In this document: piece by piece, positions 20,875 through 21,018 of the stretch
Numbering within the stretch: position 1 is the first letter of the stretch
Layout: the number at the start of each line of letters is the position of its first letter
Assembly (NCBI RefSeq): GCF_054482595.1
Contig: NZ_CM137008.1
Length of the DNA: 64,000 nt
Direction: 5' to 3' (one strand)
Translations under genes and position numbers: made by a program
Notes under the pieces: model-generated
What the model was told of the DNA's origin: nothing
The model's database searches: none
The model's input: only the letters and a program-made list of their open reading frames with translations

Positions 20875-21018
20875 ACGGTAAAGCCCTCACCGAAGCGAGG
20901 GCTTGAAGGAGAAGGGTTATGATGCGACTTGTCATCATACTGATTGTACTGTTACTCATAAGTTTCCCAGCTTATTAACAGTCAGTCTCAGGGGAGGAGT
21001 AATCCTCCCTTACCCTTA
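20875..21018 (-). ncRNA. Sib-like antisense sRNA (type I antitoxin), copy 1; ends approximate
   Basis: Minus-strand promoter TTGACA-N17-TAATTT (21053..21025) giving TSS near 21018; transcript fully antisense to ibs ORF and SD; 3' hairpin gccctcgcttcggtgagggc. Confidence 0.55.
20919..20978 (+). CDS. Ibs-family type I toxin, 19 aa (MMRLVIILIVLLLISFPAY), variant copy
   Basis: Short ORF below ORF-track cutoff; SD AGGAG 8 nt upstream; hydrophobic 19-mer matching the Ibs family. Confidence 0.7.
   Translation: MMRLVIILIVLLLISFPAY

Follow-up and report, generated by a model that had tools for sequence, protein, structure and literature searches.

The intergenic region between serA and fau in the stretch of DNA that we analysed (64,000 nucleotides, referred to here as the window) holds two tandem ibs/sib type I toxin-antitoxin units. 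We consider it very likely that both are intact units of the ibsC/sibC type in an E. coli chromosome, that the proline at residue 17 of the first toxin is an ordinary allele, and that the units are told apart only at the first of two target recognition domains (TRDs) of their antisense RNAs and are therefore partly redundant rather than orthogonal. Pro17 is the commonest allele at this position in E. coli, and the difference between the two peptides reflects, at the protein level, the exchange of three bases in the loop of TRD1 (nucleotides 49-51 of the Sib RNA).

Two ibs/sib units between serA and fau

The units form a direct repeat of 289 nt with a spacing of 392 nt and an identity of 91%. 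The features of the locus, in window coordinates, are as follows.

19458-20690, plus strand: serA, left flank
20710-20736: terminator-like hairpin of serA
20780-21068: repeat unit 1 of the tandem (partner 21172-21460)
20859-21017, plus strand: putative ibs mRNA of unit 1, 159 nt, with a -10 element TACGAT at 20847-20852
20877-21017, minus strand: Sib RNA of unit 1, its 141-nt extent taken from mapping to SibC +1..+141
20881-20904, minus strand: terminator hairpin of Sib unit 1 in the predicted fold, GCCCUCGCUUCGGUGAGGGC then UUU (Sib nt 114-137)
20919-20978, plus strand: ibs ORF of unit 1, 19 codons and a stop, MMRLVIILIVLLLISFPAY; IbsC Pro17 allele, RefSeq WP_071525914.1
21025-21053, minus strand: putative sib promoter of unit 1, recognized from its sequence, with +1 at 21017; the same in both units
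21172-21460: repeat unit 2 of the tandem (partner 20780-21068)
21269-21409, minus strand: Sib RNA of unit 2 (SibC-like), from the Rfam match, the fold and mapping
21311-21370, plus strand: ibs ORF of unit 2, MMRLVIILIVLLLISFSAY; IbsC Ser17 allele, WP_010723220.1, the same as K-12 IbsC
21471-22073, minus strand: fau (ygfA), right flank, from the annotation of the 100% identical XH990 region

A reading of the DNA made from its letters alone (the sequence-only reading) had proposed two Ibs/Sib units here, with Ibs copies carrying Pro or Ser near the C terminus. The translations of both ORFs bear out the two residues, and the ORFs and the strong antisense SIB_RNA matches agree on the two units. 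Both ORFs have the form of Ibs toxin genes, being within 18-19 codons, highly hydrophobic and wholly antisense to a Sib RNA, and both peptides show the Ibs termini seen in K-12 IbsA-E, MM(K/R) at the N terminus and S-F-x-A-Y at the C terminus. The position between serA and ygfA/fau is that of the ibsC/sibC locus, with the same flanks in the K-12-lineage strain MC4100. Thus every family feature that we tested, namely the covariance-model score, predicted fold, ORF form and genomic position, was found in this pair. E. coli XH990 matches the 780-nt intergenic region at 100%, with both ORFs annotated as IbsC, which is the PGAP product name for both peptides; the CDS of unit 1 is annotated as 'type I toxin-antitoxin system toxin IbsC' in XH990, AR_0067, SCU-313 and O145 strains, where it is identical. 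The Pro allele is therefore already catalogued in RefSeq as IbsC, under WP_071525914.1.

The K-12 ibsC/sibC unit (QUAD1c, rygC) lies at the same locus with the same architecture, and its peptide (WP_010723220.1) is identical to that encoded by unit 2. Relative to unit 1, the K-12 ORF differs at codon 17 only, AGC (Ser) instead of CCA (Pro), and outside the ORF at Sib nt 18 and 30, whereas TRD2, the Shine-Dalgarno sequence, the start codon and the promoters are identical. K-12 has one unit where the window has two. K-12 IbsB/SibB and IbsE/SibE share with unit 1 a Pro at the residue 17 equivalent and an S-F-x-A/T-Y tail; unlike the window units, they lie at other loci (yegL-mdtA and yqiK-hldE), have an MMK N terminus and differ at many further nucleotides, including in both TRDs.

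Opposite the two ORFs, full-length matches (1-147) to the SIB_RNA model (RF00113) were found at 20903-21053 (minus strand, 138.3 bits) and 21295-21445 (minus strand, 134.6 bits), against a gathering score of 56, which places both RNAs in the family by covariance model; the match of unit 1 also takes in the sib promoter. We placed the SibC numbering by landmarks from Han et al. 2010, namely G49CU51, C107UCCUUC113 and the probe NPSC46-68 (GTTACTCATAAGTTTCAGCGCT), so that Sib nt n corresponds to window position 21018-n in unit 1 and 21410-n in unit 2. The 141-nt Sib RNA of unit 1 was predicted by ViennaRNA to fold with a minimum free energy of -55.3 kcal/mol (z -5.2), and that of unit 2 (z -5.8) shares its predicted architecture. 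Both predictions place nt 48-55 in the 8-nt apical loop at the tip of the central hairpin and leave nt 107-113 unpaired; the folds show the P5 apical loop of TRD1, the J1/7 single strand of TRD2 and a hairpin that forms the terminator.

The putative sib promoter of unit 1 consists of a -35 box TTGACA (21053-21048), a 17-nt spacer and a -10 box TAATTT (21030-21025). A consensus promoter scan of the serA-fau intergenic region found no promoter; the sib promoter was missed because its -10 box fits the consensus at only three of six positions. Similarly, a simple terminator scan did not report the terminator hairpin of Sib unit 1, because its T run is too short. The 5' end of the ibs mRNA was set by mapping ibsC G51/G53 of Han et al. 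against SibC C109/C107.

Could unit 1 be a decaying, non-functional duplicate? Degenerate units are known: in Escherichia whittamii, a Leu-Pro (TTG-CCA) unit that adjoins serA has lost its start-codon bases (GGAGAAGG-ACTTGTC) and is probably a decayed toxin gene. In unit 1, the Shine-Dalgarno sequence, ATG, ORF and stop are intact, a putative sib promoter and a terminator are present, the Rfam score exceeds that of unit 2, and the same type of unit is the only serA-fau copy in some of the strains sampled, AR_0067 and SCU-313 among them. We consider decay of unit 1 extremely improbable and rejected it as a pseudogene on its intact ORF signals, its higher Rfam score and its occurrence as the sole copy elsewhere.

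Several other elements were observed at and around the locus. A GC-rich hairpin closes each repeat unit just outside the sib -35 box, at 21055-21081 (CAGGGCGAT-N9-ATCGCCCTG) in unit 1 and at approximately 21447-21472 in unit 2, where the stem is imperfect and abuts the fau stop codon; this hairpin may terminate transcription of either the ibs mRNA or fau. Strain 88-3493 carries a tandem duplication of a 34-nt piece that contains the unit-end hairpin. Just beyond fau is the 6S RNA (ssrS), a full-length Rfam match at 22094-22277 (minus strand, 139.8 bits); a mechanically called 248-aa ORF at 21471-22217 extends into it, whereas the RefSeq fau is only 603 nt. Elsewhere in the window, the Rfam sRNA ES036 (CssrF) matched at 4798-4840 (minus strand) with 42.5 bits, just over its gathering score of 37.6.

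Codon 17 and the two target recognition domains

The features on which the comparison of the two units depends are as follows.

20967-20969, plus strand: codon 17 of unit 1, CCA (Pro), complementary to Sib nt 49-51 (UGG)
21359-21361, plus strand: codon 17 of unit 2, AGC (Ser), complementary to SibC G49-C50-U51
20950-20972, minus strand: TRD1 of Sib unit 1 (Sib nt 46-68), 3 of 23 nt differing from unit 2
20903-20919, minus strand: TRD2 of Sib unit 1 (Sib nt 99-115), which lies opposite the Shine-Dalgarno sequence GAAGGAG and the initial base of the start codon
21342-21364, minus strand: TRD1 of Sib unit 2
21295-21311, minus strand: TRD2 of Sib unit 2

The two peptides differ at residue 17 only, yet all three bases of the codon are changed (CCA versus AGC). 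The approximately 100 nt upstream of codon 17, which include the Shine-Dalgarno sequence, the start codon and codons 1-16, are the same in both units, and the 141-nt Sib RNAs have five differences, at nt 18, 30, 49, 50 and 51. That three of five differences in approximately 199 nt should be adjacent had a simulated p of ~0.002, and the cluster is therefore not a random scatter of substitutions. The codon 17 change is thus a clustered trinucleotide swap and not a point substitution; to call it a 'Ser-to-Pro substitution', as the sequence-only reading did, names the residue difference correctly and understates the change in the codon. The complementary change that it expected in the antisense RNA is present, codon 17 lying opposite Sib nt 49-51.

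The biochemical framework for interpreting this swap comes from the work of Han et al. 2010 (PMC2943612), who found that SibC has two independent target recognition domains. TRD1, nt +46..+68, contains the P5 loop and has its target inside the ibsC ORF; TRD2, nt +99..+115, is the J1/7 single strand and targets the translation initiation region. SibC altered in one TRD alone still repressed ibsC, and alteration of both TRDs abolished repression. The single change U51G had no effect, whereas a swap of G49CU51 (sense AGC to GCA, primer C1d-R) enabled TRD1 pairing with ibsD. Chimeras that could act through TRD2 only gave repression but small colonies. In these assays, Sib was overexpressed with IPTG. 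The authors also proposed that duplicated units evolved discrimination via TRDs located in variable regions (PMC2943612). The position of the change in the window is thus relevant to specificity, as had been suspected from the sequence: codon 17 is the very trinucleotide that Han et al. swapped in the apical loop of TRD1.

In both predicted Sib folds, the variable nt 49-51 fall inside the apical loop. Predicted folds of the putative ibs mRNAs place codons 16-17 in the apical loop of a hairpin and leave the Shine-Dalgarno region unpaired, and these predicted loops of Sib and ibs mRNA fit the loop-loop initiation model of Han et al. In the mechanism that we propose for the window, each unit would produce a 19-residue hydrophobic membrane toxin from the plus strand and, from the minus strand, a Sib RNA of approximately 141 nt that spans the entire ORF together with the ribosome binding site. 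Sib would repress the toxin mRNA by pairing begun at two independent sites, one at which the P5 apical loop would meet the mRNA loop holding codons 16-17 (TRD1), and one at which a single-stranded stretch would pair over the Shine-Dalgarno sequence and start codon (TRD2).

We then compared cognate and cross pairings of the two units. The TRD1 duplex had a calculated energy of -38.3 kcal/mol for the cognate pairing and -26.3 kcal/mol for the cross pairing. TRD2 is the same in both units at 17 of 17 nt and gave -27.6 kcal/mol in all four pairings, and a non-cognate Sib/ibs duplex keeps 90 contiguous perfect base pairs, formed by Sib nt 52-141. Orthogonal pairs, as Han et al. use the idea, differ in both TRD1 and TRD2; the window units differ in TRD1 and are alike in TRD2. 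As TRD2 and the other 90 nt of overlap are identical, each Sib should still repress the mRNA of the other unit through TRD2. Given that SibC with one changed TRD still represses its target and that TRD2 is identical here, we infer that the units of the window strain would cross-repress each other, perhaps somewhat more weakly than they repress their cognate targets; this mutual cross-repression, and not orthogonality, is the best-supported prediction. The Sib in the published assays was overexpressed with IPTG and the TRD2-only chimeras formed small colonies, and the mismatch in TRD1 could therefore weigh more heavily than is assumed here when Sib is expressed at its native level.

The contrary interpretation is that Pro is the derived state, that it alters the toxicity of the peptide and that the units are now functionally separate pairs with distinct specificity. 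The three changed bases do constitute the experimentally defined TRD1 discriminator, and the cross TRD1 duplex is approximately 12 kcal/mol weaker than the cognate one. Against this stand the identical TRD2 with its 90 contiguous base pairs in the cross duplex, and the published observation that SibC with only the codon 17 trinucleotide changed still represses ibsC (PMC2943612). Divergence in specificity, which the sequence-only reading had suggested, is therefore seen in TRD1, at 3 of 23 nt, and stops short of TRD2 and the 90-bp cross duplex. Together with the allele data described below, these considerations lead us to regard fully separate pairs as improbable.

The engineered SibC1d (PMC2943612) is changed at the same three nucleotides (Sib nt 49-51) as the Sib of unit 1 and likewise has TRD2 intact, and the Sib of unit 1 is in effect its natural equivalent. 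The two differ in the change itself, GCU to UGC in SibC1d (an Ala codon, ibsD-like) versus UGG in unit 1 (a Pro codon), and in nt 18 and 30, at which unit 1 differs besides codon 17.

Alleles of codon 17 and the tandem haplotype

We surveyed codon 17 alleles in 5426 complete E. coli genomes by searching for exact 30-mers covering codons 14-19 and the next 12 nt, with the following counts.

TTC-CCA (Phe-Pro): 2789/5426 genomes
TTC-AGC (Phe-Ser, K-12): 2164/5426 genomes
TTC-GGA (Phe-Gly): 1843/5426 genomes
TTG-CCA (Leu-Pro): 346/5426 genomes

These four alleles cover 7146 of the 7294 units, which were found in 5424 genomes. On the assumption that TTC-CCA and TTG-CCA never co-occur, approximately 58% of genomes carry a Pro codon at position 17 of the locus, and 874 genomes have a unit within one mismatch of window unit 1 over 131 nt. 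The suggestion that Pro is the odd allele does not survive these counts: the sequence-only reading had itself allowed that the Pro variant might prove common elsewhere, and TTC-CCA was found in more genomes than AGC. One Ser-allele unit in this survey sits on a plasmid.

Units from other species were sought in species-representative genomes with a degenerate pattern that required the conserved flanks. Most hits were chance matches in AT-rich genomes, and we inspected the ten loci labelled Escherichia or Citrobacter; among these, the locus in a Citrobacter MAG was rejected as a chance match with no Ibs ORF. CCA was present in the single serA-fau unit of two other Escherichia species (MOD1-EC7003 and E1V33), and a Citrobacter unit has GCA at codon 17. 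The Rfam SIB consensus GCuGgGaAaC is the antisense of the Pro-allele sequence TTC-CCA-GC, and unit 1 fits it exactly. On the evidence of three non-coli Escherichia genomes, Pro17 is probably the ancestral allele in Escherichia. The implied direction of change, with Pro as the derived state, thus finds no support, since Pro is the commonest allele and also occurs in other Escherichia species; the same facts speak against the reading of the units as functionally separate pairs.

No position in the family varies more than residue 17, which is also the least constrained one in the otherwise conserved S-F-x-A-Y tail. In K-12 the equivalents are Q (IbsA), P (IbsB), S (IbsC), A (IbsD) and P (IbsE), and units from other Escherichia add G and H, giving Q, P, S, A, G and H across the family. 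The Pro codons at the equivalent site in K-12 are CCC (IbsB) and CCG (IbsE), and, taking the species and the family together, the trinucleotide has many alleles (CCA, AGC, GGA, GCA, CAG, CAC, CCC and CCG).

K-12 IbsC is toxic on overexpression and is repressed by its cognate SibC, according to the literature. Secondary sources place the toxicity of IbsC in its hydrophobic centre and describe frameshift variants that are still toxic, and an alanine scan of Salmonella IbsA found H3 and L11 to be the only essential residues; R3 and L11 are kept in both window peptides. A review citing Mok et al. 2010 reports that C-terminal residues are needed in the minimal toxic IbsC peptide, which would favour altered toxicity and so the separate-pairs interpretation. 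That interpretation has to contend with the natural Pro at the same position in IbsB and IbsE, the latter labelled 'toxic peptide' in the MG1655 record. With Pro naturally present in K-12 IbsB and IbsE, Pro17 is unlikely to alter toxicity qualitatively, and a quantitative effect of S17P is possible. We infer that both window peptides would be toxic, residue 17 being a tolerant position.

The serA-fau locus is polymorphic for one or two units, with two in approximately 1870 of 5424 genomes. The usual tandem has Gly in unit 1 and Pro or Leu-Pro in unit 2, and the Pro-then-Ser tandem of the window is a minority haplotype, its spacer-specific 30-mer occurring in 55 of 5426 genomes. Among spacer-positive assemblies that we inspected, the Pro+Ser tandem was present in O145 RM9872, O157:H16 Santai and 88-3493; it was also found in APEC37 and XH990, and the spacer 30-mer occurs in many other O145:H28 STEC strains. 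We rejected a sequencing artefact as the source of the arrangement on the basis of these independent assemblies and the 55 spacer-positive genomes.

The common Gly+Pro tandem, as in O157:H7 and MEI008, resembles the window in that its units are 392-393 nt apart and differ at codon 17, one of them having CCA. In the Gly+Pro tandem Pro is in unit 2 with GGA in its partner, whereas in the window Pro is in unit 1 with AGC in its partner. The TRD2 target of the Gly+Pro tandem also differs by one base (G/A) between units, at the position equivalent to 20905 (Sib nt 113), where its unit 1 has A and its unit 2 and both window units have G. As the Gly+Pro tandems differ in both TRDs and the window pair in one, the window pair is the less diverged. 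A strain labelled Escherichia coli, SCPM-O-B-8794, carries a Gly+Pro tandem with identical TRD2 targets; its serA is 92.5% identical to that of the window, which is low for a within-species comparison, and the strain may represent a cryptic Escherichia clade that bears an E. coli label.

Up to the repeat boundary, unit 1 agrees at every base with the single-copy haplotype of AR_0067, and the ORF of unit 2 is that of K-12. This correspondence suggests that the tandem was assembled by recombination between pre-existing alleles. It could be argued further that the arrangement is a neutral mosaic, in which recombination or gene conversion joined two existing alleles with no functional consequence and left the units fully redundant. 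The matches of unit 1 to the AR_0067 haplotype and of unit 2 to the K-12 ORF would be expected under this account, as would the polymorphism of the locus for one or two units and the restriction of the Pro+Ser spacer type to approximately 55 genomes. Co-resident units almost never share codon 17 (two Pro in 0 genomes, two Ser in 3 and two Gly in 1), which could be taken as a sign of functionally separate pairs; as few tandem haplotypes exist, common descent explains the pattern as well as selection does, and descent from these few haplotypes could alone account for it under neutrality. What a neutral mosaic accommodates poorly is the trinucleotide itself, which comprises three adjacent differences in an otherwise identical stretch (improbable by chance, at p ~0.002), is multi-allelic across the species and the family, and lies inside a loop shown to start pairing. 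We therefore rate a purely neutral mosaic as unlikely, although less so than separate pairs, and retain the reading of two intact, partly redundant units that differ in TRD1.

Ordinary alleles and a possible address code

The finding is real but ordinary, and in itself matters little: the allele is already in RefSeq as IbsC, and the two-TRD model that explains the codon variation was published in 2010. It does bear on how the locus is described, as the Ser17 of K-12 is a minority state, so that accounts of 'IbsC' centred on K-12 do not represent the species.

A more speculative suggestion, which we put forward tentatively, is that residue 17 is a passenger of an RNA 'address code', with selection acting on the loop bases at Sib nt 49-52, and that the Pro+Ser tandem is a half-way stage. 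If this were true, these loop bases would start antisense pairing and the amino acid would merely follow, and a tandem that is switched in TRD1 and identical in TRD2 would represent a natural half-way stage toward an orthogonal toxin-antitoxin pair. The Pro+Ser tandem is carried by approximately 1% of E. coli, the O145:H28 STEC lineage included, and XH990 and the O145:H28 strains thus offer a natural TRD1-only variant pair for weighing the share of each TRD at native expression.
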